Below, piece by piece: positions 4,680 to 53,000 of a stretch of DNA of 64,000 bases. A program made the position numbers and the translations under genes. Source of the DNA: Ophelia neglecta (lineage: Eukaryota); assembly GCA_965285935.1 (NCBI GenBank), contig OZ260661.1:47244001-47308000 (forward strand). The letters run 5' to 3'. The notes under the pieces were generated by a model. That model ran no database searches and was not told the DNA's origin. It saw only the letters and a program-made list of their open reading frames with translations. The number at the start of each line of letters is the position of its first letter. The stretch's first letter is position 1.

Positions 4680-4739
<60 letters not shown>

Positions 4740-6862
4740 AGATTTTAGTCGTTAACGCGATAACTCAAAAACCATTACGTACATCTTTTTCAAATTCAAC
4801 ACAGCCATAGACCTTATTGAGAGGAGGAACTGATTAGATTCTGGTGAAAATCCAATAATTATTAATTAGTTAAAACAATTAATTAATTATGTTAGAAACA
4901 CATTTTCTGCAATAACACAAAAAATATTTGATACATCTTTTTCTTATTTAACACAGCCATAGACCTTATTGAGAGGAAGACCTGTATTTATTCTGGTGAA
5001 TTTCTGATAATTATTAATTAGTTAAAATAATTAATTAATTATGTCAAAAACACATTTTCTATCATATATTCCAAACTATAGATGATATTGGCTTGAAGTT
5101 TTGTGTCATGATTCATGTAATTACTACAGTGAAACCTGTGAATTAAGACCACCGAAGGGACTGGGAAATACTGGTCTGATTTCGGAGGTTGTCTGTTTAG
5201 ACAGGTTATTTAACATTGAAAGTATACATCATGGTTCTTATATAAGTGGTTTAAATAGGCAGGTGGTCTGATTATAGAGGTGGCCTTTAAGGCAGGTTTC
5301 ACTGTATATACAATCTGTGTAATAAATTAACTAGTTAACTTTATTAATGACCTGAAAAAAAATTAGTTAAGGTGGTTTTGTATTATTCCTGAGGTCATAT
5401 GGAACCAACTTTATTAATGGCCTGCCTTATTATTGAGGTTATATAGGAGCTACTACAATCTGTGTAACAAGTTAACTAGTACTGTGTAATAAGTTAACTA
5501 GTTAACTTTATTAGTGACCTGAAAAAAATTAGTTAAGGCAGTTTTTCATTATTATTGAGGTCATATGGAACCTACTACAATGTGTGTAATAAGTTAACTA
5601 GTTAACTTTATTAATGACCTGAAATTTTTTTAGTTAAGGTCGTTTTGCATTATTATTGAGATCTTATGGAACCTACAAATTAGTTCACTTTATTAATGAC
5701 CTGAAAAAAAATTAGTTAGGGTCGTTTTGCATTATTATTGAGGTCATATGACCCCAACTTTAAGAATGACCTGCATTATTATTGAGGTCAAATAGAACCT
5801 ACTACAATCTGTGTAATAAGTTAACTAGTACTGGGTAATAAGTTAACTAGTTTAACTTTATTAATGACCTGAACAAAATTTAGTTAAGGTCCTTATCTTT
5901 TGTGCCAACTAACAGCTACCATATTCACTACCTCCCCTTATGCCATGTTTCCCATTCGATTATTGCACGCATTCGCGGATATACCCCTTGCTGTCGGCCC
6001 CCCGACAGCGTTGGCCTAGTTTAAAAAAGAAATGTGATAAAAGAAATTTAACTTTTTTTACTTAAAGCGATACTTATAATTTATTGTTCATTATCATTTT
6101 AGAACTTTCCATTTTGTATCATGAGCATCAACATTACAAGAATTGCCATTCAGGCTTTAAGGGGAGACTGTCTGAACAAGTAGGTGTTTTCATTTTCTTC
6201 AAATTGTTGATGCAAAACAAGAAGCAAGTCTAAACATGAACAATACCTTTTATGTGCACATAATTCATTAACTAAACCAGTATTGAAATCAGGATAGTTC
6301 TAATTAATTAAAAATCATGACAAGGCACACCTATATATACATGTACATTTTGTGTAACCAGAGAGTGCAATAGAGCCAAGGATGTGCTGGGATTACTGAA
6401 CGAATTCTATGTTGCTGTATACTACAATCTATATACCACATGGAAATCAGGAAATAAAACCATAGCTGATACTGGATATGTTATGAGGGGTAGGTACATG
6501 TTCATGTATATCATACTGTGAAAATTGTATCTATGCCATTTCATCATCATGATTATAATCAGGGGGAATATCATCCATATTGATATTGATGGCCTGATAT
6601 AGAAAAGAATGTATTTAGTGATAATTGCAGCCATGGTGTGTATATGAAGTTTTTATCTTCAGATTTAGAAGCCTCTGTAAAGAAGAACCCGCGGATAGTG
6701 CTCAGAAATTTGGAGGGGTATTTGGAGCAGAAGCGTGGTGCGACAGGGGGAGGGGCAGTGGGCGAGACTGCTTTGGGGAGCAGTGGAACAGGAGGCACTG
6801 GGGCAGGTCAAGATCTCAAAATCACTACCTTTGGTGAAATGGAAAAAGGGCTACAGGAATAG
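209..6862 (+). CDS. ELMOD3: ELMO domain-containing protein 3 (ARL2 GAP family), 12 coding exons; start codon uncertain
   Basis: GT-AG exons with consistent phases: 209-229, 305-469, 905-1075, 1233-1347, 1701-1769, 1961-1993, 2615-2709, 3060-3180, 3442-3564, 4407-4537, 6103-6179, 6362-6489 and terminal 6663-6862 (13 if the tentative 209-229 exon is counted). ELMO motifs: IYRRLTGSKFDCPRFGGHWEQIGFQG|NDPSTDLRGCGFLGL and NFPFCIMSINITRIAIQALR. The N-terminal exons are low-complexity and less certain, and the gene may start upstream of the window. Confidence 0.88.
2030..2373. repeat. Dispersed repeat of unknown class; partial copies at ~9944-9980 and ~30510-30564
   Basis: The motif GCACTAAGGC.AAGGACTGGCAGGAG..C.TCACCAGTGA.TGAGGCCTTTT recurs, wholly or partly, at three unrelated intronic/intergenic sites. 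Boundaries are approximate. Confidence 0.55.
2818..2995. mobile_element. ~178-bp MITE, Tc1/mariner-pogo-like, TIR CAGTGAAACCTG
   Basis: Starts CAGTGAAACCTG and ends CAGGTTTCACTG-TA. Its interior is similar to the copy at 5127-5304. Confidence 0.85.
3604..3674 (+). mobile_element. Very short poly(A) insertion between 20-bp direct repeats (probable 5'-truncated retroposition scar)
   Basis: AGTTTGGCATGTGCGAAATG at 3604-3623 and 3655-3674 brackets ATTTTTCT plus an A-rich tail. Confidence 0.6.
4674..4739. repeat. (GCC)n microsatellite within the HINE-like element
   Basis: Directly visible, about 20 units. Confidence 0.95.
5127..5304. mobile_element. MITE with TIR CAGTGAAACCTG and TA TSD, nested in the HINE-like element
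   Basis: TA-CAGTGAAACCTG...CAGGTTTCACTG-TA. Confidence 0.9.
5309..5890. repeat. Degenerate AT-rich tandem array (units containing AAGTTAACTAGTTAACTTTATTAATGACCTG...TTATTGAGGTCATATGGAACC)
   Basis: The same motifs recur five or more times with variable unit length. Confidence 0.85.
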
Positions 6863-23200: not shown

Positions 23201-24175
23201 TGACTAATAATCCAAATGTCCAAGACAGCCAGGTAGAATTCATTCCTGAACAAAAGTCTTCAATCCTTTTTACTTTTCCCAACCTATAATAAAATTTGAA
23301 ATACTTAATTGCATATATACACATATTACTGCAGAACTGTTTAATGTCTTTGCAGGAATTTGAGTGAATTTGGCTTTCACCACAGGCAATAGATGGGAAG
23401 TACCATAGCTCTGTGGTCCCCAATTACAGGTAAGATGGTATAAAGAGCAAACTAGTATGACATTTAATAGAAGTGGAATCGAAACCCAAGGGGGTTGCCT
23501 TGGCAGGTCCGAAAGGACTGGGGGGTACGGGGAGCTGATCTTGTTTGTAGGAAAATTAAGGGATGCTTATCTTGTTGTATTGTAAGACCTTGAAGAGCTA
23601 CTTCATATGGTTTTTGGGTCATTTATATAGAAATAGAGTGTAATTGCTGTCACCAGCTGTGAAACTGCCAGAAAAACTACGGTAAAATATGAAATATTGC
23701 CACTGTAACTCAAAAACAGGACCTGATACTAAGGAGTCCTCTAATTTAGGAGTTAGGACCCACTAAAAGCGGGCACTTGAAAAAAGGGGGTTCCCTCCCA
23801 GGTCACATACCCGTACTACTCATACTGTCATACATTTACATATACATTAGGTACCTCCCCCCGGGGAATGGACCCTGAGACGTTTTCTTTGCCGATTTTG
23901 AATGAAACTAAAAGTTACATTATGAGATCCTCCATAATCACGTCTAGACAAACAGGAACTTTCCCATTCCTTTCGAAACACTTTGGAAGCGTCTTTGAAT
24001 CGATGACAGCTGTCTTATTATGCTTGCAATACTGAAAAATCATGTCTTTCCAGAATTTCATTTTACCGTCCCATGAACTGGGATTTAAGTCCCTGTTTTC
24101 TCTGAATGGGGAGAAAAGGACATCCATAGTCTGGTTGTCATCCCATTCCGAAGGATAGAAATCCTGCCTGGCCAT
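20297..24175 (-). CDS. CHMP7: Charged multivesicular body protein 7 (ESCRT-II/III hybrid), 10 coding exons
   Basis: Minus-strand exons 24175-23919, 23283-23073, 22900-22706, 22295-22216, 22026-21964, 21819-21771, 21613-21494, 21239-21135, 20810-20594, 20445-20297. N-terminal WDDNQTMDVLFSPFRENRDLNPSSWDGKMKFW, membrane-binding WLSWTFGLLVKKPVGW, Snf7 core (AKNCLKRKK...IQQAESNKKIMDAY, DLERELDEL) and MIM2-like LPEPPT. Confidence 0.93.
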
Positions 24176-24493
24176 GTTGCTTTAATTTGCCTTTCCTTGT
24201 ATAAAGTCAATATCTATTTAGGTTTGTGGAACGTCCAGAGTCCCGCTTGTGGATAACAATGTTTTAATAATACACGCATTATAACGTGTGAACAGTAGTC
24301 TCAAACGAACCGTCTCAAACGACCGGATACCAAATATTTTGCGCATGTCACAAGCCTCGTTTCTGAAACGGAAATGACTAAAATAAGGAGGTGACATAAA
24401 AAACAAAGTGTAGAAGATGTGACATCCGTATTAAAAATAATGATTGTAACAGTGTGGACGTCGTTAAGTTCTTGATAGCGATAAAGCTTAGGA
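24176..24493. promoter_or_regulatory. Bidirectional promoter / 5' UTR region shared by CHMP7 and ZFYVE28
   Basis: Divergent ATGs at 24175 (-) and 24494 (+) are separated by only 318 bp. The region is locally CpG-rich against CpG-poor gene bodies. Confidence 0.75.
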
Positions 24494-27400
24494 ATGAACA
24501 TGTTTTCTATACGAAAATGGATGTTTCGGCCTAAGGTAAAGTATGTGGTCAGGTGGATTCAGTGAATCTTGGCTTGATCTGTTATTTTCTGTTTCCCATT
24601 CACGTCACCTGCTAGTGACAAATAGTATCATATACAGTCAGAAGTCATGATTTTCCAAATCATTTATCGTAAGAAAGTGATAAAGTAGAGCCTTTGATCA
24701 AGCTTCGCTATAAGAAATATCAAGGCCTACAACATGAGAGTCCGAGACCTAAAATATCTAGAATATTTATAACTCTGGGTCCATTTCTAATGTTATATAA
24801 GTTGGCTATGTAACATTGGGACCTCAGAGCTATGAAGCAAGCCATTTACTCCCTGTGGTTAAAGCCGAACTATGTCCGCTTAACAAAAAGGCACTATTTT
24901 TCCATTTGCTATCTTGTTTTTAGGTTTAAACATGAACAAATAAGCAATCAATTCATCATAGTCTATTCAGTTTTAAAAATTTATATCTGTCTACAAAAAG
25001 AGATTCTTGACCGACTTTGAAATCTTGATGCAGTTTTAGATATGACGGGTCTGTTCAAAATACTCTTTAAATGACGTAGGTGAATGCGAGACCACTCAAA
25101 CATACCAGCGTTATACAAATATTATGGAAAGTGCCAGTGGTCGTGCTGTTAGCTTGAGGTGTTCCATACCTGAAATGTTTGATTATTCAAAGTCTGTGAA
25201 AAAACTTGACGATACGATTCTTTATTCGTCCAAATTAGCATGTAATCACAATAATAGCACCGGAATAATAGTGCCTTTTAGGTATGTGGAAAAAGTTCAA
25301 CTATCGCCACAGGAAGTAGATGGCTCACATCATTGCTCTGTGGTCCCGTGCCAACCAATATAACATTAAAAATGGACCTAGTGCTATAAAACTTAGCTGG
25401 AAAATTTGCACCCTAAAGCAATGATAGGCCTATCCATTTTCATAAATATTATAAAAAAAACCTGTGCCTTTCTATTCTGACAAGTGCACCAGAACTCCTG
25501 CAACTTCATGTGCCTAGTGTCATATTGTGGTGCGGACAGCAACCATTGCAACTTTACCCTTTTGTCCTCCAGTAAAACCAACTATTCATTCTACTAAACA
25601 TTTAGTATAATTTAATACCATATTTGATATCTGCTTATTATCTTAAGTGGAATAATGTGTTTCTATTGGATCCTTTTAGCCAAAAATACACCTAAAATTG
25701 GAACTCATTCTTTTATAGTTAGCTCCCAAATTTAAGTTTGACAGTGTTTGTAGGCCTTTTTGTGCATGTTATTCATCTCTCTCTATATATATAAGCAGAT
25801 GAGAACAACCATGGAGTATATTTGAAATTGGCAAAGTATCCCTGATACTTTTAAGGCTATTCTGAAAAATGCAGACTACCCTGGTTTCCAATCCACTAAT
25901 CTCTTTTACTAACCACTGCCATTCTCTCAGCATGAGTTACCTCCTGCTTTCCATGTTCATTTGTATTTTGACCAATCAAAGACAATTCTGTGTTTTCCTT
26001 CATACATACACTGCTGCCATGTTTATCAACAATAGAATCTAGTGACCCTGGCAAGATACCAGGATCTAGCATGCAAATCCAATGAAAACCTGGCATTTTG
26101 TGACCAAATAATAAATTGTACTGTATCACTGTATATGATGTAATTACAATGCAAAGGCAGAGTGTCAGTAAGGAAACCCTTAAAATGTGTACAGGGTAGT
26201 ATGATTAGAATCAAATTTGCCAGAAGCTACTGCTACTGCCTTTGAATACAAAAAATCCAACAACCTACTTTTGTCCCAACTCATTTCAGGGTTCTGAGAT
26301 ATCCTGTTATTAACAAGTTGATTGAGTTAACTCTCAATTCTGTGTTCAGTTCTCCAACGTAGCTTATTACTGTATAGAAGATCCAACATCATTGGCACCG
26401 TGTTGTGAATGCTACATGTAAATGAAATCTTTGTGTATTTTTTGGTCAAATTAGTCAGCAATGTTTTTGGATTATTTGGTAGGCTCTCAATCTGTTAAAT
26501 TCATTCTGGTACACTGATATAAACTGGAATGTGGGGGCTTATTGATTAATCAATATTTAAAACAAATACAATGCTATCAAGAAGTGTAACTGCATTACTG
26601 TAACAGTTATTAAATTGTCCCATTTTTCTATATCAACTAACAAGGAAATAAGCAGTTCATTAACAGCAGGTTATCAGCATTATCCAGTGGGTAAAGGGTA
26701 AACTAATGATGCCATTATTTGTTTGCATGGAATCGGTGCATTGAAGTATGTTTTGAGGGAAACTAGCTTGCCTTGAGACATTAGGAACCAACAACCAAGT
26801 ACATGTACTCTCATTGTAAATCTTTGGTAGCACATCACTTCAGCTTACAATTTAGATGATTTAGTCAAGGAAGCTACTTTGAGAGTGTTACTCATAAATT
26901 TGATGATAAAAAGCAAATACCTTGTCCTATGAAACCAAAGGTTTTTTTTAGCTAGTTATCAGTATTGAAACAGCAAATGAGGTTAACACAGGGCCATAAC
27001 TTGCTGTGAATATTGGACATATTTTTTTCAATTTCATTTAATTTTGGCCTTGAGGATTTACCATTAAGCATTTTATGTTACTATATAAGACACTGTCTAA
27101 AAACTTATGCTTGTTAGCATAGGGCTTGTAGTGATTTGTTCTTTCTCGCTGGACAAAGAGGAGTGGTTGCTAGGCGAAATCACATAGCACATGACATTGT
27201 GCTGTGTGTTCAGTTATATGGAAATGCATGTATTTAGTATATGCATTCAGAAAGTTCACATCTGCTGCTATCTGAGATCACCAGGATTGACATCTATTTC
27301 CACTCTTTAATGTTAATTGGTGCCATTGTGTACTCACTTTGCCTACCATGTATGCATTTTACAGATTTGGTCAAATGGAATAGACAGTGCCTGAAATATT

Positions 27401-30400: not shown

Positions 30401-33400
30401 TTTCAGAGCATGCCTTCAGTGCACAAAGGGGAAGTTGCAATAATGTTATTTACACAAAAAGACACTATAAAAACTGGAGAAACATGTATAATATATTGAG
30501 TAATAAGACAGGCACTAAAACAATAGACTGGCAGGAGGTCATCACCAGTGACTGAGGCCTTTTCGTTTGTGAAAACAATCTTCGTCAGATTTAATTAGAT
30601 TTTTCATGTACCCCATAGTCCAGACCATGTTTATTGTGTACTGGTATGTTCTGAAACTGAAGCTTTGTGGAATGAATACATGATGCATTTAGTTTGGATA
30701 CTCTTTAATCACACAAATATTTTTAGAGTATTAATGCCACTGAAAGTAAGCTTAAAATTTTGAATCAATACTTATTTTGTTAAGAAAAAATATATTTACA
30801 CAAATAAATGTGTGGGTAAGGTTCTGTCACTGATTGTGTTCCTGGAATCCTGGAAAGCAAGGCACCAAATAGAAAAAATATAGTTATTCGAAAAGGTAAA
30901 GCTCTTTATCATGACATATACTGGCATATTTTTTGAGCTTTGTGTGTAGAAACTAAGCAAAGTTATCTCTTAGACTACATGTACATTTAGGGAGAAAAAG
31001 TATTTATGTAAACAATGAAATGTCTTGTAGAAATGAAAAACTTTTCATGCATGTGAAGAAAAAATCTTGAAGGAAGAATGCAGCCACTTTTGCCACTCTT
31101 TGATATTTAATAGGAAGTATGGTGTACATACTTTGAATCGGATAGCATTTGTTGTGCTATAGTTTATGAACTAATGAAATGCTGATCTCAATGCTATGTG
31201 TGGGGGCCTTTTGCGCTCAGGTTACTGAATGCTCACTAGCTGTTAACATAGTTTGATCAAGTGTCTTTGGTAGGTGCAAGTGTTTTGCCCCAGAGTTATT
31301 GATTCTTTTTATTATCTACTGAATTATATAACGAGATGTCTGTCATGTTTGGTGTATTATTCCATACACTGGTCTTGATGGACTAAGAAGCCCTTGGTGT
31401 TACTGTATAGATCGAAGAAGGAGGACGTCACTTATCACGTGATATTGTTAGTTACTGCTCCAGCTGGAGACAAACAATCAGTGCCGCCATGTTGGGTACA
31501 TGTTAAAGTACACGGTCTTAATATCAGCTCCGATGATTTTGTGTTTGAATCCAGTATTTATGCGTGATTCTGACAGATTTCTACATTTGTGGAAACCGAA
31601 AGCTCTGATTAAGGTGATTATAGCATTGGGCAGTGTTTTCCGCCCTTCTGTAACCACCGAAGCCTGCGAGAGATCTACCGATTTTTTCGGTTTCCTACCT
31701 GTGAGGACAAGCTGAGAGATATTATTTAATGTTAAAAGCTTAATAAATGTAAGTCTATAGGTTTTATGAAATTGAAATTGGGTAGGCACTTTAGATTTAG
31801 TGCATCTTCCTCATGCCACATTTGCATGACTAAGCTTGCGCAATTATTTACAAGAACCCTGGTCAGAAATTCACACATTACCATTGTGACATTGCAATTC
31901 ATTAATTCACTGTCACAAACAATATGACACCCAATTTGCTGAAATAATAAAGCCCCAATAATATTACTTACACATAACATGACTTGTAAAATCCTTATAC
32001 ACCACTAGTACTGGTCCCAATAAAAAAAAAACGTTTAGCGAACAGGCGTAAATATGGGGGATTTAAGATCTTACGCACACGGTACGACAAACTTGCCGTT
32101 ATTTCGTACGAAGTGTCCTTCATGCTGGCTTTGACCCGAGCTGAAATGTGATGCACGCGAACCATTATAGGTAAATCTTTCTAATAGCTCCGACTTGTAC
32201 ACATTATCCCCTTTCTTTATCTGTTTTTCTTCGCCGGCAAAGAACGCTGCTATACACGAAACGCCTATCACCGCCATCTTGAAGAAACTGTGTATACCCA
32301 CAGAAGCCCGTTGTCAGGTCGTCGCCACGCTCTGACGCGCAGCTGACGTCAGAGCTTCTTCGATCTATTGGATTCCCTAATCAATATCATTTGTTGTAGT
32401 TGTTGTTTTGGAAACATGTGCCTTCAACACTACATGACATTATGTACATGTATATAAATGTGTATATTAAGGGAAAATTAAATTCCTGTGAACTTTTTTC
32501 CTGTCTGTTGGTACTTTCAAGTCATGTTATTGGAATAATGTACAGGATGTAATCCTTATATTTTGTTTTTCTTGCAGAAGTCAGATAATTCTATGCTGGC
32601 TCAGTTCTTTTATGCCGATGAAGAGTTGAACTTGATTGCCGCAGAGTTAGACAGTTTTGATGGGAGAAAGGATCCAGAAAGATGTACTTCTCTTGTCAAC
32701 CAGCTGCGAACAAGTCAGGATAAAGTCTTAACCATCATTGAAAAGATAATGAATAAAGTGATACCAGAGCAGCGTGCCAATCGTGACTTCAGAGTCAAGT
32801 TCCCTGATGATGTTCTCCAAGAAAGTCTGGCAGGGCAGCTGTGGTTTGGGGCAGAGGTAAATTATTAGATTAGTTGTGCACTTTTTGCCATTTTCAAGGG
32901 TAGCGTATGGAAAACTTCCATACCCTGCTGTGTAGAGATTCTGTTATAGTAATGAAGTATGAAAGCCCCTAACTTTTTATTGCAAACAAACAAAAATGAT
33001 TTTGGGAAATAAGAAATATATTTTTGACCTTCAAGCAGTCTTTTAGATTCAAATTGATATGTAGGGCATGCAGTTCATATATGAAAAAGCCATCTTTTTT
33101 CATACATATATCACTAAACACCCTTTTTTATGTATTGTTTTTTCAACTTTTTCTCCCTATTCATAAATTGTGCAACTTCATCTTTTCTCATAATTGCATG
33201 GTTCATTTCCCAAATTCATATGGAAGCTCAGGGTGTATTTATAACTGGGTAAAATTCATGCCACATGTTATATATATACCAAAAAGCAGGCCATTAATTA
33301 ATGTGTTTCAAACATTAAAATTTTATTAACTTGCGATGAACCAGTAACACAGATTTGACCTTCTTGTTGGCACTGACTTTATGCAAACACAGTCAGTCTT

Positions 33401-36400
33401 TAAATAAACGTTTGCCTGACTAGTTTTGGTTTTATAACTAAGATATCTTAATATTCACTGGTACAAAAATCTAGGAAATCTATTATATGTGGCTTCACCA
33501 CCATATATAAGCAGAAACTAAAATTGGCAATAAAAAAAGTTTATCATATACAGTAACTGCTAAATTTCATAGTTTTAAATTAAAACTGTGATGTTTACAA
33601 TAATACATGTGGTATTGTTTCTTGGCAGCAACACAGGTGTCAGTTGTTTAGTAATGAAATTCAAAATTAAATTGTTAAAACTGTTACAAATTTACATGCC
33701 TTTATTCCAGTGTTTGGCTGCTGGCTCACTCATTATGAACCGAGAGGTAGAAAGTGCTAGTATGAGGCCATTGGCCAAGTCACTCACTAGACATCTGGAT
33801 GTTCTACGCAGCCTACTCAGGGATCAATGCCTAAGAAACCAAAATGACTACACTGACAATATACTAGAGTCACTGGCAGTCTTTGATAGGCTTTTTGCCG
33901 AGTTTGAGCTAAGGTAAGTAGTATGACAGAAGGTGATCTTATGGTAAATGTAAAAAATGAAGAGTAAATAGATATATTTTTTTCTTTGTATTTTTTAAAT
34001 TGCTGATATATAAATATTAACTAAAGATACCCTTATCAAATGTAAAGTCTGTTTAAGCACCTCTTTTCATGCTTATGACCTTTTTATTCTGTAGCTATGT
34101 TAGTGCTATGGTCCCAGTGAAAACCATGAAGGAGTATGACTTGATGCAGGATGTTGTGGTACTATTCTGTGAAACTTTGGAAAGGTATTGCAACTATTAA
34201 ATTTATGATATTACTCTAAGTGAATTATGAATTTGTTGATCTCTTTGAGTTTTTCCAAGAACGGGTTTTGTATGCGATGCCATGTGATCCCTGCACTACT
34301 AGCACGACTCTAAATCACACCTCTCATTAATTGCCTTTTATCAGAGGTGAAAGGTGTTGCCTAACTTTTATGCTAACTGTTTGAGTTTAGTTACAAACTC
34401 GGAGATACATATTTTCAGGGCTTTGAGGATAGGACTGTTAAAACAGGACCAGTTAGATGACTATGACCCAGCTCTTATGTTCACAATACCTAGATTAGCC
34501 ATAGTGTGGTAGGTATACTCCTCAGAATATATTTATCTCATTTGCCTGTTCATATTGATATTTAAAAGACCTAATTGAAGAAAGTGTTTCTCTGTCAAAA
34601 TTATAACAGAATGAGAAAACAAGTGCAACCTAGTCGTTTTACTGTTATTAGATGAATAACCTTGTAATCTGTGTTCTAGTGGGCTCCTGGTCTTCCCAGA
34701 AGGTCCACTCAATCCTGATATGGACCCCATGAATATGTCGGAAATGTTCCGGCCATTTCAGACACTTCTTTATAAAATAAGGTAATTTTCTCCATGTCCA
34801 CATCCAATTTGATATTAATGTGGACTGTGGAGTATATTCCAGTCACTTTCTGTTTCATACAAGTCAGAATTCTAATTTTTAATCTTATCCCAGGTGTTAT
34901 TAACTTTGTTGCTGTTGTTTTTTGTAGAGAGTTGCTGTGGACCCTGAGCAGACAGGAGCTGTGGCTTCTTGAGAAGTCTCTGTGTAGTACCGAGGAGCCA
35001 GTTCTAGGAGAACGCAGTGTGGAGGATCAGCTAAACTCTATCAATGCAGGCTGCAAAACAAACAACAGATTATCATGTCTTAGTAGCAGCCATGCTGAGG
35101 ATACAGACCCCAGTAAGCTGAGCCAGTCAGGCTCCGAGTACAGCCAGGAGCTGACCGGGTCAGAGCACAGCCAGGAGGGTTGTGACATGAGCCACTCTTT
35201 GTCCTCTATGACTATTGTTGCCAGTACAGGTGGTGGCCCAGACTCAGATACAGACTCAGGGTCAGACATTGAAGCAGGAAGCTCTCTGCCAGGCAAGATG
35301 GCAGACAACAGCTCCAGTTCTAGCCACAGCCACCACGCTAGCAATGACTCTGGCCTATTGAGTGAGCCAGATATCTGTGAGCCAGGACAGTCCACATCAA
35401 ACCCTGTGCCCTCCGGCAGCTGCACTCAGCCAGAACTCACCAGTGTGGAGGCAAGAAGGCTGAGACACTCTCAGTCCTGGCCAGAGCCCACCAGGAGCCT
35501 GCAGAGAAGCAGACAAACCTTGCTGACTGAAGCCCCCATAGCTGAGGCTGAATATACCAGCAGCCTGGAGGTCCTTGACGACATCAGGCTGGAGGGCCGT
35601 TCCAACAGGCGCTGCACTCACAGTACAGGCAGCCAGGAGTTCTTCTTTCATCTGCCACGGAACACAGGCCTAGAGGATAGCACACTTGTCAGTTTACCTG
35701 GCATCACTTCGGATAACACAGAAGAGGACTCTCAGGCAGAGCAAGTTGTCCTCACCAATTCCAGCCCTGTGCGAGAAGATGGTCAAATTTCCTTTGTTAC
35801 TGATGCCCTTAATCAAGTATTTGTGACCGATCCTTCTTTCAAAGGAATGTCTTTGTCCCCATGGGACCAGCAAGCACCCCCATTCAACCACATCAAATTC
35901 GATGGGTGTGAACAGCCTGCTGTTCAGAATGGAAGCAATCCTGATGTTTCTGAAAAGATTAGAGAGCCTGAGGTTCCTAGTGATAGTCCAGAACCTAATA
36001 TGGCTAACACTGTGCACACCAGCCAAGGTGTCCCTTCTAACTGTGATATTTCCCGTGATGGACATTCCTTGGAGGAAACTACTGTGAATGACTCCCCTAA
36101 AGTGAGTAGTAAAAATAGGGCGTCTGTAGACTCAATCAATAATACTTTTGAAGAAAAGGATAATACAGAAACTTTAGAGAAGGAATTGCAGCGTGGTAAA
36201 AAACGCAAATCAAACAGACACAAGATCGTAAATTGCCGTGAAGGGAAGTGTAATGGAGAATGTCTAGATGTGCCAAAACTAAACAAAATGAAATATAACG
36301 AGACCATGAATGCCAACTGTTCTCACAGCCACAGTCCCAGTGTGGAATATGATTGGGACAGAGAAAGGTACTGTGCTGGTCTCTATTTGTTTATAAGTAT

Positions 36401-37781
36401 GTACTGGTAGTAATATTTAATTTTTCAAATGCATTAATGATTTGAGCATTTAAAATCGACAAAGGTCATATCCCAGAGACCTAAACATTTAGGCAACCAG
36501 ACTTATTTTAAAGGTCAATATTTCTTCAGCTATGCAAGCAGTGAGACCAGCTCCTACAATTCTGACAGTCATGATGATGAAGAAATTGCATTAGCAATAC
36601 AAGCGGCTGAGCTTGCAGCCCGGCGGGAGGCCAGAGGAAGATTCAAATCCAGTGCCGATCTTATTCACAGACTCTTTGTCTGCATCTCAGGTAATGTATA
36701 TCTAAATATGGAATTGTTTGTATCTGATGAATGTAGGGTTGTAAACTCCTGGCCTTCAATGTTGTTTAGTGTACCAGGCATTTTAATTATTTAGTTCTCC
36801 TGTAACTAGCTGGAGTTAGAATTAATACCTCTATATGACAATAAACAGGAGTTGCAGATCAGCTGCAGACAAACTATGCGAGCGACTTGCGTCACATCCT
36901 GAAAGCAGTGTTTGATTGTATCTCCTTGGAGAGTCTGGAGAACGAAGAGGAGGGAGAGGAGGAGGAAGCAGACTCGACTGACTCCAGCGGCAGTGAGGAC
37001 TCGGTGGACGATGGCCTCCCCAACGAACACCACAATACTCGCAGCCGTGCCCTTGATGAAGCTGGTAGGTATTCTTAATAACCCCCTGTCATGTTTTAGT
37101 ATAAAAATCTCAGTCCTTACATTTGGGCTACAAAATAAAGATGAATATTACATACCTTTTATTCTATAATTTTTGAAAATTGATTTTTCTGTGTCCCTGT
37201 CACTACATTTTGGACTTCAAGATAGATTGAAGCAACTGAGAAAAAGAGTCTGGATTAGAAAAATTACTATTTTATTTGAAAATTGAACAAAACAAGGCAG
37301 ATATTTAAAGATATAAGATTGACTTAACACAGGGGCAAAATCAAAATTATTATATTATTATATTATTCATATATGAATTCAGAGCCACCAGAATGGATTC
37401 CTGATGGTGAAACCCCATACTGTATGGCGTGTAAAGTGCCATTCACATTTGTCCGCCGGAGACATCACTGTCGTAACTGTGGCAAGGTAGGTTTAAATAA
37501 CTAATTGTAAACTCCCTTATTTGGGTCCTGTATTGATGCACACTGTGTTTCATATATGTTGCAAGAAAAATAGGTTGGTTTCCTCTTTTGAAATTGAATT
37601 ATTAAACCACCCAAGTCCTTTGGCTGGATGATATACTTACATTATTATTGTAATATTTCAGATATTCTGCGGTAAATGCTCTTCCAACTGTGTACCTCTG
37701 CCTCACTATGGCCACTCCAAGCCTGTGCGAGTGTGTAACCATTGTTTTGTATTCCAAGTCACCCCCTTCACTGTGCGGTGA
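24494..37781 (+). CDS. ZFYVE28: Lateral signaling target protein 2 homolog (FYVE-domain protein), 11 coding exons
   Basis: Exons 24494-24535, 32578-32856, 33711-33913, 34095-34184, 34419-34508, 34680-34781, 34928-36367, 36530-36690, 36849-37064, 37383-37486, 37662-37781. [14 protein letters not shown]|[67 protein letters not shown], and the FYVE domain [34 protein letters not shown]. Confidence 0.95.
31407..32368. mobile_element. Non-autonomous DNA transposon with 14-bp terminal inverted repeat (ISL2EU-like) and a decayed ORF remnant
   Basis: ATAGATCGAAGAAG (31407-31420) and CTTCTTCGATCTAT (32355-32368) are perfect inverted repeats whose outer AT may be the TSD. The interior is CpG-rich. The minus strand from 32277 reads [29 protein letters not shown]..., then after a frameshift [17 protein letters not shown]. 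Confidence 0.75.
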
Positions 37782-41044: not shown

Positions 41045-44000
41045 CTATGTTGATCTAAAGGTTGAAGGAAAGTTGCCTGCTTTGGCTGTGTCTAATCCAA
41101 ACAACATTCTTAGATCTGCTAAAGTTAGTTTGTTTGCAGATGCACCAGCACCTGTCAGGACATTTTCTGCAAGGGACAGTTTTTTCTTCTGCAACTGAAG
41201 TATTTTCTCCTCCACAGTGTCTTTGCAGATAAATCGGTGAATGAACACATCCCTAACTTGCCCCATTCGGTAGACTCTGTCACAAGCCTGCTGCTCCAGG
41301 GCAGGGTTCCTGTTGAAGGTAAATATATTCATTTTTATTCATATAGAGTTCAAAGCCAGTTTATGAAATACGGGGGGAGATACTACTCATTTACCATAGT
41401 AGTTTACCAGGTTATGGCTTAATGTTTTGGCTGTGATGCTGTATAACCACAATGCTCCAGGTTATTCAGATGTCACACTTTGTCAGGTTTGTAAGTATAA
41501 CAGTTACCGCTGAGCTGTACTAAAGAAGTTGCTCTGAGAGCTTTTATTCATCTGAACAGAAACCTGGTAAAAAATAAAAACCTATTATTATATAAACATT
41601 GCAAATCATTGTTTAAATCAATCACAATATTAGATGTCTGCTATGACAAGGCATGCAAGCCTTTCTATTTATATTGTACATGTCTCAGTACTTCCTGTTA
41701 ATTAACACTTTAATAGCACACTGACCAAAAATAAGTTTATTACTTGAAGCTAATTGCCTATATCTGCTGTTAGTAAGAATCATTCCTATTACATTCCAGT
41801 TGCAGATCAACTTGGAATGAATAATACATAATTACAATATTAATTGTGAAGTTGGATCAATCCTCCATGTCAAACATTGAAGATGGCTTCAGCTCAGCAG
41901 TTTTGGGTGGATTTCACCGAGCAGGATTTGGACCTTCTGCAGACACAGATCTATGATTTTGTGTATTGTGTTGGTGAGGAGAAATATGGTGAAAAATACA
42001 TTATGGGACAATTGGCCAAGAAGAACATATCTGGTCTGGTTAGGGCCATCAGAGATGGCTTGACTGTTGAGTGTCTTGCTGATCTGAATAATTATTTCCT
42101 AAATAAATTTATTCTAGAGGGTTTTGAGTTGTATCAACATAGGATTAACTGGAGTTTTCTTGAAAACCATAACCCTGGGGATCAAGATGAAGACTTCTAC
42201 CAATTTGTTGCAAGAGAATTTGAATTATCAAAGGCAGATACCTGCACAGATGGTCAAAGTCATGCTTTGACTACACCAAGGATAACAATTGACCATCGTT
42301 TTACAAAAAAAGAAAAATCCAAAACACAAATGATGGAGTATTTAGTTGATTTCAGTATGTATCATGATACAGAAGAAATTAAGTTTCAATTGAGAGATTT
42401 CATTACAGCTGTTGGCAAACAAAAATTTACAAATTATCAGTTGAGTTACAACATAGATATACAAATTTATGATCTGATGAATCCCAAGAAATATGCCCAG
42501 GATTCAAAACATGTTATCTTAGGGCCTGAGGAGCTGACCTATCACTTTAAAAATAAGTTTGTTATTGATGCTTTTAAGCATGTTTCTAATGATATTAAAT
42601 GGATGGATGAAGAATTACTTTATGGCCCTCACAACTGTCATATAGACTTTTCAGTGGAAGGAGATGTCGCACAGGAGAAAATGTTCCAGAGCATCCGTGA
42701 CTTTATATATCATGAGCAAAACCATTGGGGACTAAGTCAGCCTCAAATAGATAATGTGTACAAAAATCTTAGCCATGCCATACTATCGAAACTGTACAAC
42801 AAGCATCCTGATTATGTGTTTTCATCCCCAGCAGACCTCAAGACCTGGGTACATCATGATGCTGTACTCAACTCTTTCATCAGATACTTCAGGAAAATAA
42901 GATGGGCCAGTCCAGTGATGAAATTTGTCCGAAATTATGAGGATGCAGGTGAAACACATGTGATACTGGTCAACTTTTATACTGATGATTTAGAGTATCT
43001 CCGAGGGCAACTTGATAGTTTTGCCACACGTGCTGGAAAGCAGTTTTATGACCCTTTATATCTTAGGTCGCCAACAATAGAGGGCCAAATTGATCGGCTC
43101 CTGGACCCAAGATATTATATGCAATCCAGAGAGCATACGATAAGACAACCCAGTGATCTTGCTAGGTTCTTTACTCAAAATTTTATGCAAAAAGCTTTCT
43201 GTTCATACAGGGACTCAATCAATTGGATAGCTGATAAATTTGAACAAGGGGACATGCCATATAAACATTTGCCACCAGATTATTTCCTCAGACCACCAGA
43301 GCCTCCTTTTGAGAGAGTGTCAGACAGATCAGTTCTGGTGAAGAAGGCCTCCTGGTTGGTATCACCGTTTGCTCGTAAACTATTGATGCAAGAGGAATTA
43401 TTTTCATTGATAGATCAAATTTCAGCCATCTCCAGCCCAATACAGCTAATTCCTCCAATATATGCCTTGGAAAACAAAGACCATTGGTCACAAACACTAT
43501 TGGCAGTCAACGTCCAAGGTATCAAACCATACAAAACTCGGGTAGATTTCCCATCTTGGATAAATGACAATATGACTGTGAGTTTTGCAGGGAAGAAAAT
43601 GGGACTTAGAACTTTTCTACATCATCCATCACATTGTAGGTTCAGGCAAACGTATAACGTTAAACAAGATTATCTTACTGCCACCAACACTGTATACTAC
43701 TTAGTAATCTATGTACCAGAGTTTGAGGCCAGGAAAAATATGCCTTTTTATGGCAGAGAACCATCAGCCTACCAAATCTACATAGGAGAGGCGCGTAAAG
43801 GAGTACTTGATAGATGGATCAATCAGCGTTATGCGCACTGCCGTGTGACCAAACGACTGCTTCAACACCATAGTCTGCAGAAAAGTCTTGGAAAAGGATT
43901 CATTGCCTATGAACCAGGTCCCAATGACACCAATGCCCAGCTACCGCAATGTCTTCTGGCCCTAGCCCACGTGAAGTCTTATCCTACAGCATTATTTGTT

Positions 44001-47000
44001 TTGAATTCATGTTATAATGTGGAGCAGATGCACAACGTGGAGCAAGAACTCATAGACCTCCATCATGCTAGAGACATGACCCGAGGACTTAATCAGATAT
44101 AGCTTTAGACTATATTAAATATTACAATACATGTAGTGACAATATGAAGTGTAATGCAGTTACTATAAAAAATGGGTATCCTTTGTAAAAAGTATTGACA
44201 TGCCCTGAAATGTATGATTTGCATGATGCCAAGCCTTGGGTTTTGCCTGCTTTGTCTATAATTGTACTATCAAACAGTTTTGATAGGTTTTTATTAAATA
44301 ACCATCCAATAAGAAATCATATTGTGTTGTTATTATCATAAGATATAATTAAAATTTTGATTACTAGTCAGTCACCATCAATAGTATACCACTGTGTTTA
44401 GGTCTATTGTTTCCATGTGCTTGTGTGTGGTGTTGCCAGCCATTTCTTTTTAGTAGTATTGCATACATTTATGTGTCACTACTCTCCAAGGCTGCCACCT
44501 GTTGAACACACTGACCAACCTGGCTATTTTTGCTGAACAGCGACCTCACACATGGGAAGTGGGGGAATGACACAAAATTAAGTGGACAATGAAATTCAGT
44601 GCAACTTAATGTATTTTCATTATCATCCTGAGAGCCTATTACATTCTTGAATGTATACAGGGGTTGAAAACAGTTGAAAGGGCAGTTTGAGCAGTGGTCA
44701 ATTGATGGTTTAACCTGTGGTTTAAGTTAAACCATGAGATCAGAAATGGTTTAACCACTGAATACATGGATTAACCAACTACATGTACATAATTACAGTT
44801 ATCTGAATAGTCACCAGTGCTTGCAAGCACTAATCATAACAGCATGGAATGTTGTCCTGTGAACTATTCTTGTAAAGGTATACCAAAATACAGGGCTGGT
44901 CTGATTCTGTCTATTTAATAAATTCTTCATGACCGCAACATCTTAGGAACTACATGTTATGTACTATAATTTGCAATAAAAACGTTTCATACCTTAATAA
45001 AATAAAGGCAATAAGAAAAGTGCACGTGTCTCAATGTTTAATAAACATACATATATTAATTGTCATATATGGTAACGTGTTATGTCAAAAGATCGCGTGC
45101 GTCTAAAACTGTGTGGATTATGTCATGTAAAAAAGGCAAGTGTCTGAAATTATTTCCAAGAAAACGCGTTGCTTCCCCATCCCCTCCCTCTTCTGACGTG
45201 CCGCCCCCTTCTCCTAGCAGTTTATGGCATGTTCAGGCCGCCGCGGTCAACCTGTGTGTACAAGTACGCAAAGGGTACAAGTAATGTACATTAGTCGCCG
45301 CGCTGTGACTCAGTCTCACTCCAAGAGTTCTGCAAGCGCTGTACTGTCATTGAGAACAATCTGGGATAGACAGATACAAGTTCTTCTCGAGGACAAATAT
45401 TACATGAAACAGACAAAAAGGTTGGTGTTTTTAGTATTCATCACTTAGTTATGAGGAACTGTTGATAAATGCGACATGATATTGTTCCCTTTTTGTTTGG
45501 AATATCGGAAAAGTTTGTACATGTGTTGAGAAGGCAGGACTTGCTAACACCTGTTTCGGCTGTGTATATAACCCTACAGCGTGTACCGTACAATGTTCAG
45601 ATGCGCTATGCTACGAATACAGGGTGATATCTTTCATTTTGCAAAAATATCAAACTGGCATTGATGATATCTTTAAAAACGGTAATCACTTTTAATCCCA
45701 AATAATATTGCGGAATCAGTCCTGCATGCGCATGCCTCACTAGTTCAGGACAGCGAAAGCCACGATCACAGACAATATAGTACAATACAATACCTATGCC
45801 ACTGTGCCACTGGACACGGTTCATGTCTCTGGGTCATGAGTTGCCGGTAATGTATGTTATCTTGCTGACAACATACATTACCGTAATAAAGTCAGTTGAT
45901 TATTACTCAAAGCCAAGTGCCGCGCCTACTTTGCCGCTTGTCAAGTCAACAGATGAAAGGGGCATGTGCTGCAAGTCAAACAGAGTGAGTGTGGGATTGA
46001 GCCACTGCAATGTAGCTTGTCGTTCAAATATGTTTAATTGCCCCCCACCTTTTAGGGATGTGGCGGAATATATAATGGGCTTCGTCCTCAATAACGAAAG
46101 GCGAGAACTTCAGCCCTATATCAAATCGCAGAGCTTATATTGCATGCATGAGAATATATGGAGATTTTTTTCCAAGTAGTGTTTGGGTCATTACTGCCTA
46201 CACTACTTCAGTTATTAAAAAAATCACAGTTTTTGTATGCTCTGCAGCCTAAAGTATTATAGGGGCAAAGGGAGAAATTGGCAGGGATGAAGCACCTATA
46301 GATGGACATGGGCTGAGGGTAGTTGGGGGAAGAGCTGGGGGGGGGGGCTGTTTTCTTTTTGCAAATATATTTGGGGGGGGGGGTGGATATCTGGCACTTT
46401 TTTCAACAAAATTTGCAGTCTTTCGGAGGGGGGGGGGCCTTGCATTTCCAAACGCCACGTTTGCATTTATTTTCAATATTGGGTGCAACATATTAATTCA
46501 CGCCAGTGGGTGTTAAAAAGTATAGATATGATATAGGGAGGTTGCAATGCACTTTCAATGGTGAAATCTCAGATTTGACTTTTCTTAGGCATTGAAAAGG
46601 GCCACAATTGGGGGGGGGGGGGGAAGGGGTCTGTACAATAGTCTTAGGAGGGGCTTGAGTTGCCTGCCTGCAATTAGTGAACCTGTACATACGGACAAAA
46701 TCATTGGTCAATGGTTGAAAAGAAGCACCCTGTGTCTGAAGGTTCATCTTGGTGTACATGTGTGTTAGAAGATGACCTGCAGCATGTGCCTCATGATGAC
46801 CATGCATATGACAAGGAGAGATCCTTTTGCTGTAGCAGTATTTAATAATCTTATTACATGTGTGTTAAGGCCCCTGCATGTTAAGATGACCATAATGCAA
46901 GAGTCAAAATACATTGCTTTCAATTTAGCCTCTCCAGTGTCTTTTTGGTGGCATATAACTAACAAGTTTATATGAATTCCAAAATATGAATCCTAAAAAC

Positions 47001-50000
47001 AATATTAACCAACTGGATTAGAATTGTTCATCGATTTAGTCACATTATTTGCTAATACTGCATTAATTAGTTATTCACTGTTATTTCTCTCTCTCCAAAA
47101 ATATAATATGATGCATATCTGTGAAATTGGGATGCAGCCTTGCAATCTTGATCTGAATTTTGTTCTAAGCTGAGGACTACTCTTGCATCTGGAAAAATGA
47201 TGTGATCAGATGATACATGAATGTGGTTAGCCCATAAGTGATTGGATGGTTAAACCATCCACAGCCCACTGGTAGCCTGCCACACTAACAGACCAAAATA
47301 GCACACCTGCCCACCATAAAATCATGGACATAAATGCTTTTCACATAGGATGTTCAATGGTAATAGCTGTAATAGGCAAGCCACTGCTTTCATCATGGAC
47401 TATAGGCTTCTTTCATCTGGGAACAGTTCACTGTAATAAAATAATAAAATAAACAGGAGGTATACATGTACCCTGTAGCTACATCTGTATTCCCACCAAT
47501 CTGGGAATGTATCTTTAATTATAACAGCCTAATACAAGGTGAGAGAGGGAGAGAGCCAGAGTGTGTGTGTGAGTGGGGGGGGGGGGGGGAGGAGCATCAT
47601 TATTTAACACAGGCTGGGAAGGGTTATAGATTTGATGATATTTTAATATGTTGTCAATAGGTGTGGTATCTTTCCCAGCATATCAGTTTTGAGTGTTTTG
47701 TGATGCCTTACCTCATCTGATGTCTCTCCATTAGAGATTTTTTGGTATATGTGACCCCCCCCCCTCCCTTTGCCCCTGGTGAATCATTATCCAACCTATC
47801 TAAAGACTAGGTTCATGAGTACCAGTGTGTTAAACTTACAGATATACATGTATAATGGTGTCTTTAACACTTTCCAAACTGACTTCATCTCACTTCCTTT
47901 CACTCGTTACATACATAATGTGGCTAAATTTGAGGTTAATTGGCCAGTCAGTTAAAAGTGGTTTGAGAACAGATAGTCATCAAACCAAGATTGTTGGGTG
48001 CCCTTGTTTAATCATAAATTTTTTAAGACTGATTAGCACTGCATGGGTACTTCTCGATTCAATTCTTCTTTAAATATGTAAAACTGTGTAAACATTTGTT
48101 TTAAACTGTAAAAAACGTTTGTAAGGTACTGTATTCTGACCTAAAACATGTACATGTATAGAATAACTTTGCAATGCAAGCAGTGTTCCATTTGTAAGAC
48201 TATATGTTTTTATCATGGTAGCAAGGAAATATCTTTCAATTTTATTCTGATAATGGGAATCAGCATGCAGTGAATTGCATCAGACTACACCCTTTTAAAA
48301 ATTTTTTTTTTTTTTTGGGGGGGGGGGGGGCAGCCCTTGAAAAAAACATCCCTTAATATTTTCAGAAGTGCTATTTTTCACACACCTGCAGTTTTTAAAT
48401 AACAAGGGCTGTAAAAACTATCTTACTGAAGGAAAAGAAAAACAGACTAGGCTCTATAGTCATAAAATATATGTTTTCAGGTTAATACCATGGGGCTGAA
48501 TTATCTCATAGACTTCACTAAAATGAGCAGCTTGAAAGGACAGCTGATAGAATTTATAGAAGTTGCTGGAGAAAAGCAGTATGGCAGGAAATACCATGGA
48601 ATATCCAGATTGGCTGTGAGGAGTGTGGAATCCCTTGTAGAAGAAATAGAAAAGGATGGCTTGGAAGTGCATGGCATCCCTGACCTGAAAACATTCTTCT
48701 CCCAAATATATATACTTAAGAGATTTTTTGAACTTCAGTCTAAAATCAAGTGGTACCCTAAACGAAGGAATGGGTACTTGGTTGATTTCACCCAATTTTG
48801 GGATTTACTAGAAATAAAGTTAGAATTGACCAGGCTTGTAGAGAGAATCGGGAGGGAGCTTGACCCGGTGGGCTTCAAAGTGCCTGATAATGTTATCAAA
48901 GGAATTGATCAACTCTTGGATCCAAATTTGTATGGGCATACGCATGGACTTCTCATGCGAACACCAAAAGATTTTGATGATTTATTACCCAAATATATAA
49001 TAGAAGGTTTGGAGGAATATGAAAACCAGATAAAGTGGATGGGCCGGGATACCAACCATACCCGAGAAATGTTGGCAATAGAGAAGAAATATCGCATTGA
49101 CTTTACCCTTGTCCACGACCTCGACAATATGCGATTGCAGCTTGATGCATTTCTGTTAATTGCTGGCAAGGAGGAATGTGGCTGTTACTATTTTTTATCA
49201 AATACCATACTGAGAGAAACAGACAAACTATTGGATAAACGATATTATGGCAAAACCTTTGAGCACAACATCACCAGACCAGATGACCTGGATGCATTCT
49301 TCAAGCAAAGATATGCTCGCAGAGCCTTTAGAAAATACATCAATGAGATTAAGTGGGCAAAGCCTCTGGCAAGAGCTAGCAGATATCTACCCTATGAATA
49401 TTTCTACTTCCCTTTAAGTCGTCCACCCATGCCTCGAGTGCCAAGGTTTATCAATCCCATGATACAAAAGGAATCCTGGAAAATGTCGGCACTGGAGCGG
49501 AAAAAGGTTCTTCAGGAGGAGTTGTACTATCACGTCAGAAACATTCCATTTGCCATCAGGTCTCCAATACAGGCTTTGCCTCCGGTATATGCCAGGAAGC
49601 AAATCTCAGATACTGGGGACTCTTGGTGGTCTTCACAGTGCTGCTATGACTCCAGCATCAGCAGGTTTACCATGATATCAACTGACCACCAGTTCCCTAG
49701 TTGGCTTAGTGATAAGTGGAAGAGCATTGAATATAGGGGTTTGGAGATGGGCCACAGGAGTTTCCTACATCATGCTATCCACTCCACATTTCCCAAGCCC
49801 AGCCACCTGGAATACAAGTTCACCGTCTATTGCCTAGTAGTGTACGTGACTGATTTTGAGAGGTATCAGTTGGTCAATTATTGTGCCCCTGGGGATGGAA
49901 GCTCTGGTCCCAGTCCATATCAGGTATACATCGGGAGGGCCAAGAATGGCCTCATGGACAGGTGGTATGATCAGCCGTACAGCCACACCAGGGTAACCAA

Positions 50001-53000
50001 GAGACTGATCACCCAAATGAAGGGGCTGCTGGAGACTGGCAGGCCTTTCAAGGCATACAGCCCAGGCTCAGAGCACATAGGCACTGCTCAGCTACCCCAA
50101 ATAATGATTGCTCTGGCAAAAGCAAAGTTCTACCCTCATGCTCTTTTTGTCCTCAAAACTTGTGAAAATGAGATCGAAATGGACGAGTATGAGCAGGAAA
50201 TGATAAAAGCTACCAAGGCTAATGACATGCGCTTTGGACTGAATGTGATGCTTTAGAGGTGCTTAAAATGTTTAAACGGCAGCTGAAAACAATGTGGTTT
50301 GATTCTGTCATGTTAACCAGGAGTGCCTTCGACACCAGGCGAAAAGATATATTCATGATTGATGATATCATATTGAATGTTTAAGTAGGAATGTGTTTGA
50401 ATAGTGACACTTAATTTAAGTTCTGAGCATTCATGTTATGTAAGAATTAACATCACTAAAATAATGTTAAGAAATGCAAAAAGTTTGCAGAGCATCCCAA
50501 CTTTTCTCACTCATTACTTGCAAAACTATATCTTTAATTGTTAAGGATAAACTTGGATACTTTTTTTTACCATATTGTAAACACATGTTGCATAAATAGG
50601 TACCATAAAATTAATTCAGCTTATAGAATGTTTAACTCAGTTTAGTGTTTACAGTAATAATTATTAGATTAGATTTAAATAATTAGTGTGCCATTTTTAA
50701 TCAAGATGCCCCAGGAAGTAAACAGTAGTATGATAAAAGTGTTTACCTGCCACATTAATTACTCATTAAATAATTTAATCAAGTAAAATTGTATCAACCG
50801 ATCCATATAAGAATAAAGGAGACATGTTAATTTTATAATTGGTCTCTGTTTTATTGATATAGTGCACTTAGTTGGTCAAATAAGGAAAAATTTATAAAAT
50901 ATTGTAAAGTTTTAAGTGGGGTTCTGCATACAACTTTAAGGGTACATTCTAATGAAATCTAGAGGCAGGGGGCTGGGTTTTACTAATTCTACTTGGGGAA
51001 CTTGCACTCTGCGCAAACAACTTTAGAAGGTTTTTTTTAATAAAAACTTGGGGAAGGGGGTGTCAATATAATTACTTCAAGGGGTAGTGCTGAGTGTCAA
51101 ACCATTTAATGACCTGGGAAGGGGGGGGGTACCAATAAAGTCTCTGAGGGGGGTTCAAATAGATCAGTTGTCTACCCCCCTATTAAAAAATGAAAAGTTT
51201 GACTGGTCGCCTCCCTTGACAACATATAAATGAAAGCCAAGGGGGTACAATTGTGCCAAAGCATGGAATCTTTGTTCAATCAGCGATTTTGTATGAATTG
51301 AAAGAGTCCAACAACTAGATGAAAGAATTATACTTACCAATGCATATCAATGAGAAATAGATGATTTCCTCCTATCAAGTTCAGGCCAACCCCTCCTGCT
51401 CTGAGTGACACAAGCATTACCTACAAGTTAAAGTATTATCTTAAGTAATATGTCCAAGTTCTATCACAAGTTTTTTTTATAGACTCTAAACATCATGTGA
51501 CATTCTTACAGACATACCAATGGAAGTTAAGGGCACTGCTGATAAGAGTAAGTATTACTTGCTTTCTTATATATTTACTTCATAAACTAAAGTTAGAAAT
51601 GATGCTTTATACACCACAGTTTGTCTACCTACCTCTGGTCCCTTTGGGTCTGAGTTAAAGGCATCTACAAGTTCGGCACGGGTTTTGGGAGGGACATTTC
51701 CGCGTATTGTGCAGCATTTCACACCTATCTGCTTCAAATGATGCTCGACTACATCCAGCATCTTGGTCCATTGGGACACAATCACACTGTGAAAAAATGA
51801 AATCATTAGAAAAATAAAATACCATTATCAAAGCTTGGACCTGTGAGTGTGTCTATGATCCTACAACATACGGAGAAATCTTAACTCTCACAAAATATAT
51901 TTCTCTACCAAAAAGCCTTTACCTACAGTTGATACTATGGAAACCCAACCTACAAGGTTAGCATAGTATTTCCTTTAACCAAACCCTGTGGGCCAACTGA
52001 GGAAAGTCTAATATTTTGTACATGCTATGTATTCATTAACAGCTTACCTTTTCATGGGTTTGCGTTTGGAAGATGATTCTTGTATCTCCTGTATGCCTTG
52101 TAGTATAGCCTTTATCTGGGAATGAAACAGGCAGAACACATTTAACTATGTATGTTATATGAGAATGGAAGAGGCACTTAGACATCAAACTCAACTAGTG
52201 AAATTTCTGCACTTTTGTATTCTATACATCATATTCACACATGGACCAAACCAGGTTTCCCTGTACATGAGTATTAAAGTGATTTACGGGGGCCATCATG
52301 ACGTCACAACCAACTTGCATATTTTCACTTTGTGACATCATTAAAATGACTCATCAGGCTGGCTCGGTTCTTTTCATAATTGAATTTGTACTGCAACTCC
52401 CACGATTCCCATAGGTCTGCCAGCATTGACATTTGTAGTCTTTCAATTATTTTTGCCTTTAATGTTGAAAATGATAGGTGCTCAAAACTAAGATAGCAGC
52501 CACAAATCAAGACGGATAGCAATCAGGGCCTTAAGAAGCTGTTTCTTTGCAAATTTTGTCTCAGAAAATTACATGTATTTAATAGCAGGTCATTATCAAG
52601 AAAACACTTGTGTATATTTTTTACTCCAGCACCACAAATGTCCATATATTTATGGCAACTTGAAAATGCAAGTTGGCACTTTGATTTGATACAGACTAAC
52701 AGAATAATGAACCACAGGTGCTGCTGATCATTTGACAAAATCAAAATGCCTGTGTAGAATCTATAGGGCAACTAGTGGACTGTAAAGATTTATGCGAGGT
52801 GCAGGAATTGTTGGAATCTTGTTGGCTTTTATTATCTGTATGTATAATTATATATATCATTGTGTGTTGGTCCCTATACGACTTATAGATCAAGTAATAA
52901 AAATCTTGAATCTTTGAGAGTTAATCAAACAGCTGCCAGATCTACCTTGGTGCTCTCAACACTATGTTTGAAGAGATCTGAGCTTTTCTTCAACTCTGGC

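Follow-up and report, generated by a model that had tools for sequence, protein, structure and literature searches.

Two related genes, A and B, lie in the window that we analysed, a 64,000-nucleotide stretch of the Ophelia neglecta genome (contig OZ260661.1, positions 47,244,001 to 47,308,000; the positions below are those of the window). Their proteins, which are 38% identical, carry several copies of an 88-residue unit, a genuine domain without a name, ahead of a C-terminal part predicted to be a GIY-YIG nuclease. By analogy with other GIY-YIG proteins we propose, with a probability of about 0.45, that the unit is a targeting module, which would bring the predicted nuclease to its DNA substrate. 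The GIY-YIG family carrying this unit is apparently undescribed in animals. The table of a 2006 survey lists, among eukaryotic GIY-YIG proteins, only the ANK/LEM, Penelope, Slx1 and MutS-fusion forms (PMC1564403), and no account of the family or the unit was found in titles and abstract openings, mostly outside subscription journals.

The repeated unit

From the N- to the C-terminus, gene A encodes four units, a family-specific extension and the GIY-YIG domain, and gene B encodes three units followed by a C-terminal part as in A (Table 1). The sequence-only reading of this DNA had reported the four copies in A and the three in B, together with a consensus having strongly conserved ends. The four copies in A are all in the frame of the listed open reading frame (ORF; residues 9-92, 155-242, 254-343 and 363-450), each running from h-h-(D/N)-F to I-x-W, and those of B occupy residues 5-88, 96-183 and 201-289. 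The consensus proved accurate: all 20 aligned units share the F, I and W anchors, and they have no conserved cysteine. The mutual similarity of the copies is significant: for 15 of the 21 repeat pairs, the score was reached by none of 1000 shuffles, and the remaining six pairs, all of which include A3, were reached by 0-7 of 1000 (z 3.7-5.0). Similarly, hidden Markov models (HMMs) built from six copies recovered the seventh, with E-values (for one sequence) from 6.4e-8 (A3) to 4.5e-25. The HMM of all copies found exactly four units in A and three in B, even at E 100, and no further copy hidden in the linkers.

The searches agree with the suggestion that the unit may be a new domain. It matched nothing in Pfam, in the sequences of solved structures or in the ESM Atlas (where all leads for the whole protein stayed below 0.9, a GIY-YIG cluster among them); no PHROGs, NCBIfam or PADLOC family matched more than two of 48 members; and a search of 301 sampled bacterial genomes, run without a positive control, did not find it.

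Table 1. Features of genes A and B and of their surroundings in the window.
Feature	Position	Strand	Description
Gene A	41883..44102	+	single ORF, 739 residues from ATG
Gene A, frame as listed	41877..44102	+	from TTG 41877, 741 residues
Repeat A1	41901..42152	+	clusters weakly with B1 and P0003's first unit (support 83/82)
Repeat A2	42339..42602	+	in-frame translation, repeat comparison
Repeat A3	42636..42905	+	most diverged copy; the extra one relative to B
Repeat A4	42963..43226	+	nuclease-proximal; 41% identical to B3
Extension in A (PP-h-Y ... W ... FP-x-W)	43452..43688	+	predicted beta-rich
GIY-YIG core of A	43689..44099	+	Y607, Y635, G637, R646, H654, E722, N739 (numbered from 41877)
CpG-rich patch between A and B	44750..46000		observed/expected CpG 0.76-0.90 vs 0.31 in the ORFs
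Gene B	48490..50256	+	single ORF, 588 residues
Repeat B1	48502..48753	+	repeat comparison
Repeat B2	48775..49038	+	repeat comparison
Repeat B3	49090..49356	+	unit in the structure model (model confidence, pLDDT, 88-97 per block)
GIY-YIG core of B	49822..50253	+	Y447, Y480, G482, R491, H499, E568, N585
Last intron of SNF2 helicase gene (presumably TTF2-like)	41310..51337	-	10,028 bases, GTAAGT...CAG

The predicted nuclease and its extension

The C-terminal part of A and B is predicted, from sequence motifs and the structure model, to be a GIY-YIG superfamily domain with intact catalytic residues, hence a nuclease. The motifs VY(Y/C)L and (Q)-h-YIG both fall on predicted strands, the predicted structure has the three strands and three helices of the superfamily, and its best fold matches are phage nucleases. 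In 43 aligned rows, the two tyrosines occur in 32 and 39, the glycine in 41 and the C-terminal asparagine in 41; the full residue set, including the arginine, histidine, C-terminal glutamate and asparagine, is present in 24 of the 40 covering sequences. Both ORFs end 2-3 residues past this asparagine. As aligned, the catalytic glutamate is missing from P0025, P0045-P0048 (amphioxus) and P0031 (Ciona), which may lack activity or rely on a residue at a shifted position. The extension preceding the core is kept in every relative whose sequence is long enough to include it, and in one relative (L079:2106-2927) about 50 residues inside it are duplicated in tandem.

The closest parallel is ANKLE1/LEM-3 (COG3680; ankyrin repeats, LEM domain and GIY-YIG), likewise an animal protein whose GIY-YIG domain lies at the C-terminus and whose centre is made of the same residues, Y, Y, H, E and N (PMC10287932). 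In both cases a small helical domain stands just upstream of the nuclease, and that of LEM-3 binds DNA (PMC11975286). Unlike ANKLE1/LEM-3, A and B have an upstream unit of 88 residues with strands, multiplied up to four times, and the extension between unit and core; Pfam hit neither ankyrin repeats nor a LEM domain in A, in B or in any of 30 aligned members. Plant EFFECTOR OF TRANSCRIPTION (ET) proteins also combine GIY-YIG with lineage-specific, DNA-binding repeats whose number varies (PMC6585611); ET repeats, however, are cysteine-rich, zinc-binding, C-terminal and plant-only, whereas our units are N-terminal. SLX1, as characterised in the table of the 2006 survey, has no C-terminal asparagine and ends in a RING domain (PMC1564403), features that A and B do not share. 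In I-TevI, T4 endonuclease II and UvrC the GIY-YIG domain is N-terminal or stand-alone, unlike that of A and B, which is C-terminal, has long insertions and belongs to animal host genes.

Relatives and copy number

Among 1.84 billion representatives, a profile of A and B had 40 hits at E 0.001, from which P0023 and P0032 were removed as repetitive and likely false. Names were looked up for 29 of the remaining 38, plus P0058: the named relatives are uncharacterised proteins of Ptychodera flava, several Branchiostoma species, Clavelina, Ciona, Paramuricea and Dendronephthya. The family is present in at least four invertebrate groups. This range rests on the profile search, since the word-index searches, which gave none and two hits, were insensitive. 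The short hits holding the nuclease alone are probably last exons of spliced genes, because, read by eye, their contigs resemble animal non-coding DNA and their ORFs start behind an acceptor-like sequence; a stand-alone nuclease form was rejected on the same ground.

An iterated HMM of the unit, run on 52 proteins (several of them near-duplicates, with the later rounds partly circular), found one copy in 15 and three in P0003. P0058 also has three copies, the tunicate proteins gave one weak match each, and P0010, P0034 and P0063 gave none with this HMM. Single-copy relatives have a helical N-terminus, then the unit and directly the nuclease part, and the multiplication of the unit appears to be lineage-specific, most relatives being seemingly single-copy. 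The tree unites A, B and P0003 in one clade (100/99), in which P0003 is the sister of B (99/94); the first units cluster together, with weak support (83/82). From this clade and this grouping we infer that the expansion to three copies preceded the A/B split, the fourth copy having presumably been gained in A.

Alleles and selection

Alleles were compared in three runs from a single sample, which is not registered as RNA and may be the source of the window itself; no RNA data set was listed as carrying the sequence. Gene B is under purifying selection: among 40 of its 41 differences, 24 are synonymous and 16 non-synonymous, the ratio of non-synonymous to synonymous polymorphism (pN/pS) is 0.18 (p 2e-7) and there are no indels. 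Diversifying selection on its repeats was rejected, their pN/pS being 0.25 and their variability not significantly above that of the core (0.10; p 0.11-0.6). Within repeat B2, positions 48883-49046 form a local hotspot: over these 164 bases, two alleles occurring in the same runs show nine differences, of which seven change an amino acid. As for gene A, the 19 differences among the rows listed (40 of 293) comprise 14 non-synonymous and 5 synonymous changes (pN/pS about 0.76), a ratio above that of B (14:5 among those listed versus 16:24; Fisher p 0.025), so that A may be relaxed or diversifying. In the listed contigs of the other haplotype, A has no gaps; by comparison, 16 gaps occur over 1,996 bases of a non-coding contig nearby. 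The listed changes in A include N714S, N720S and V721M, within nine residues of the catalytic glutamate, and two at the end of repeat A3.

Proposed role of the unit

The targeting role is inferred from the position of the unit, which was never seen apart from the nuclease and in every case immediately preceded the nuclease part. GIY-YIG cores frequently depend on an additional binding domain, as in LEM-3 and I-TevI; LEM-3 without its LEM-like domain fails to bind junctions, and its authors draw the comparison with I-TevI (PMC11975286). By analogy with this LEM-like domain in LEM-3/ANKLE1 and with the ET repeats, the unit would bind nucleic acid or a nucleoprotein, by a mode other than the glycine hairpin of helix-hairpin-helix (HhH) domains. 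The core is predicted to nick DNA by metal-dependent Tyr/His chemistry, with a Y/H/E/N centre as in ANKLE1 and I-TevI, and extra unit copies would add avidity or reach. The role may be either genome upkeep or defence.

Weighing against a DNA-targeting role, the charge of the unit is not conserved, and the units of A are neutral to acidic. Because of this we retain, as a possible but doubtful alternative, that the unit is a SAM-like module for protein binding or self-assembly, which would sense a partner (for example a viral or transposon protein) or cluster the nuclease to activate it. The genes would then be invertebrate defence effectors, whose copy number widens recognition. Besides the variable, often acidic charge, this alternative would suit the several weak SAM-like fold matches (GspK, the aIF2-alpha middle domain and Ste50 SAM, which we take to be one fold class), the rapid divergence of the unit (20-30% identity between phyla), its tandem duplication and the allele ratio of A. 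That ratio, however, rests on the 19 differences listed, the repeats of B are under purifying selection, no PADLOC family matched more than one of 48 members, and the genome searches found two copies (a lower bound), unlike expanded immune families.

Predicted fold of the unit

The sequence-only reading had suggested that the unit is possibly a divergent ComEA/(HhH)2 domain. The model predicts a compact fold with four helices, at residues 12-31, 39-48, 65-70 and 75-83, and with strands at 4-5, 57 and 87-88. The fold-match scores of the unit, which may be too low since the search used it embedded in a model of 389 residues, are GspK 4.2, aIF2-alpha 4.0, HTLV matrix 4.0, XcpX 3.9, a designed four-helix bundle 3.8, HerA 3.7, ComEA 3.4, ATP-cones 3.2-3.6, HRDC 3.0-3.1 and SAM 2.9. 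There is some truth in the ComEA-like hunch, since the GspK, XcpX and ComEA matches span the unit from its first to its last strand. These weak matches are nevertheless tied with other folds (HTLV matrix, the designed bundle and ATP-cones score equally), all within background; Foldseek found no match in the PDB at E 0.001 and, against viral models, only weak rows, many of them GIY-YIG.

HhH domains bind through backbone nitrogens, and ComEA also through a conserved lysine, K164 in Bacillus subtilis (PMC9747964). From the following lines of evidence, this glycine-hairpin mode is unlikely in our unit. First, as had been noticed from the sequence, the canonical glycine motifs are missing: G-h-G occurs in none of 20 units, compared with 5 of 5 ComEA-type and 11 of 26 Tex controls. 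Second, the glycine of VG/AG/IG, read earlier as a turn followed by lysine, lies within the unbroken helix 1 of the model; G-K/R does occur in four of the seven window units, but within this helix. Third, profile similarity is lacking. In local mode, hhalign gave the unit a probability of 0.05-0.08% against the (HhH)2/ComEA family, matched by 31-40 of 40 column-shuffled controls, and values against ComEA, Tex, GspK domains and ATP-cones (5, 26, 30 and 28, and 23 sequences, respectively) were all below 0.4% and within shuffles, compared with 99% for the ComEA-Tex control and 74-96% for ComEA-GspK. Pfam gave no hit to the HHH family for any of the seven units at E 10. We therefore consider it very improbable that the unit is a far-diverged ComEA/(HhH)2 domain gripping the DNA backbone with two such motifs. 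Relative to ComEA and the first SAM-like domain of GspK (PF12836, PF21687) it also has a longer first helix, and neither the N-terminal K-R-x-G hairpin nor the profile of the ATP-cone (PF03477) was found in it.

Genomic setting

Genes A and B are both nested, in antisense orientation, inside the last intron of an SNF2 helicase gene, which we take to be TTF2-like. The minus-strand exons around them match SNF2-rel_dom and Helicase_C (Pfam), and the helicase motifs continue from the exon ending at 51338 to the last exon, starting at 41309, across the GT-AG intron. The helicase gene spans 41045-61100 (-), and its last intron far exceeds the others because A and B sit inside it. Tail to tail with it lies a multi-exon gene (32500-37780, +) with a terminal FYVE domain (Pfam), presumably ZFYVE28/LST2-like, one exon of which is the 538-residue ORF at 34794-36410; that A could be its last exon was ruled out, this gene stopping near 37780. 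The CpG-rich patch between A and B is a candidate promoter for B. Further patches lie at 4250-5000, 24000-25250, 31250-32750 and 62250-63250, and such patches are probably promoters in a methylated genome. No CpG-rich patch was found directly upstream of A.

Protein searches of the host genome (762 Mb, 223 contigs) found A and B alone, that is at least two loci. That they are mobile DNA of a homing-endonuclease or Penelope-like kind, either domesticated or still selfish, with the units as a site-recognition array, would suit intronless ORFs within a host intron, the phage nucleases among the fold matches and the variable DNA-binding modules typical of homing endonucleases (PMC1564403), but deserves hardly any credence: copies are few and share neither terminal or flanking repeats nor flanks, Penelope-like elements are dispersed and carry a reverse transcriptase N-terminal to GIY-YIG whereas these ORFs hold only repeats and the nuclease part, CpG is depleted as in host genes (observed/expected 0.31 versus 0.25), the relatives with names are annotated as host genes in several phyla, short relatives resemble last exons of spliced genes, and P0006 was found in neither viral nor metagenome contigs.

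Significance

Few host-encoded animal GIY-YIG nucleases are described in the table of the 2006 survey, namely SLX1 and ANKLE1, plus Penelope elements (PMC1564403). A and B point to a further family, with a predicted intact active site, a domain unnamed in the libraries and a confident model. In a bolder and rather unlikely scenario, this would be an ancient family, the third of the GIY-YIG families in animals next to those of SLX1 and ANKLE1, kept from corals to tunicates, and an overlooked invertebrate defence nuclease; its front domain would be a hairpin-less offshoot of the ComEA/GspK fold, now a sensor tunable by copy number that aims the nuclease at foreign or aberrant DNA. The natural one-, three- and four-copy variants, the small soluble units and the clear catalytic residues make the system directly testable. 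If the unit binds a DNA structure or foreign DNA, it would be a new targeting module, and genome upkeep or defence would have gained a new factor in this family.
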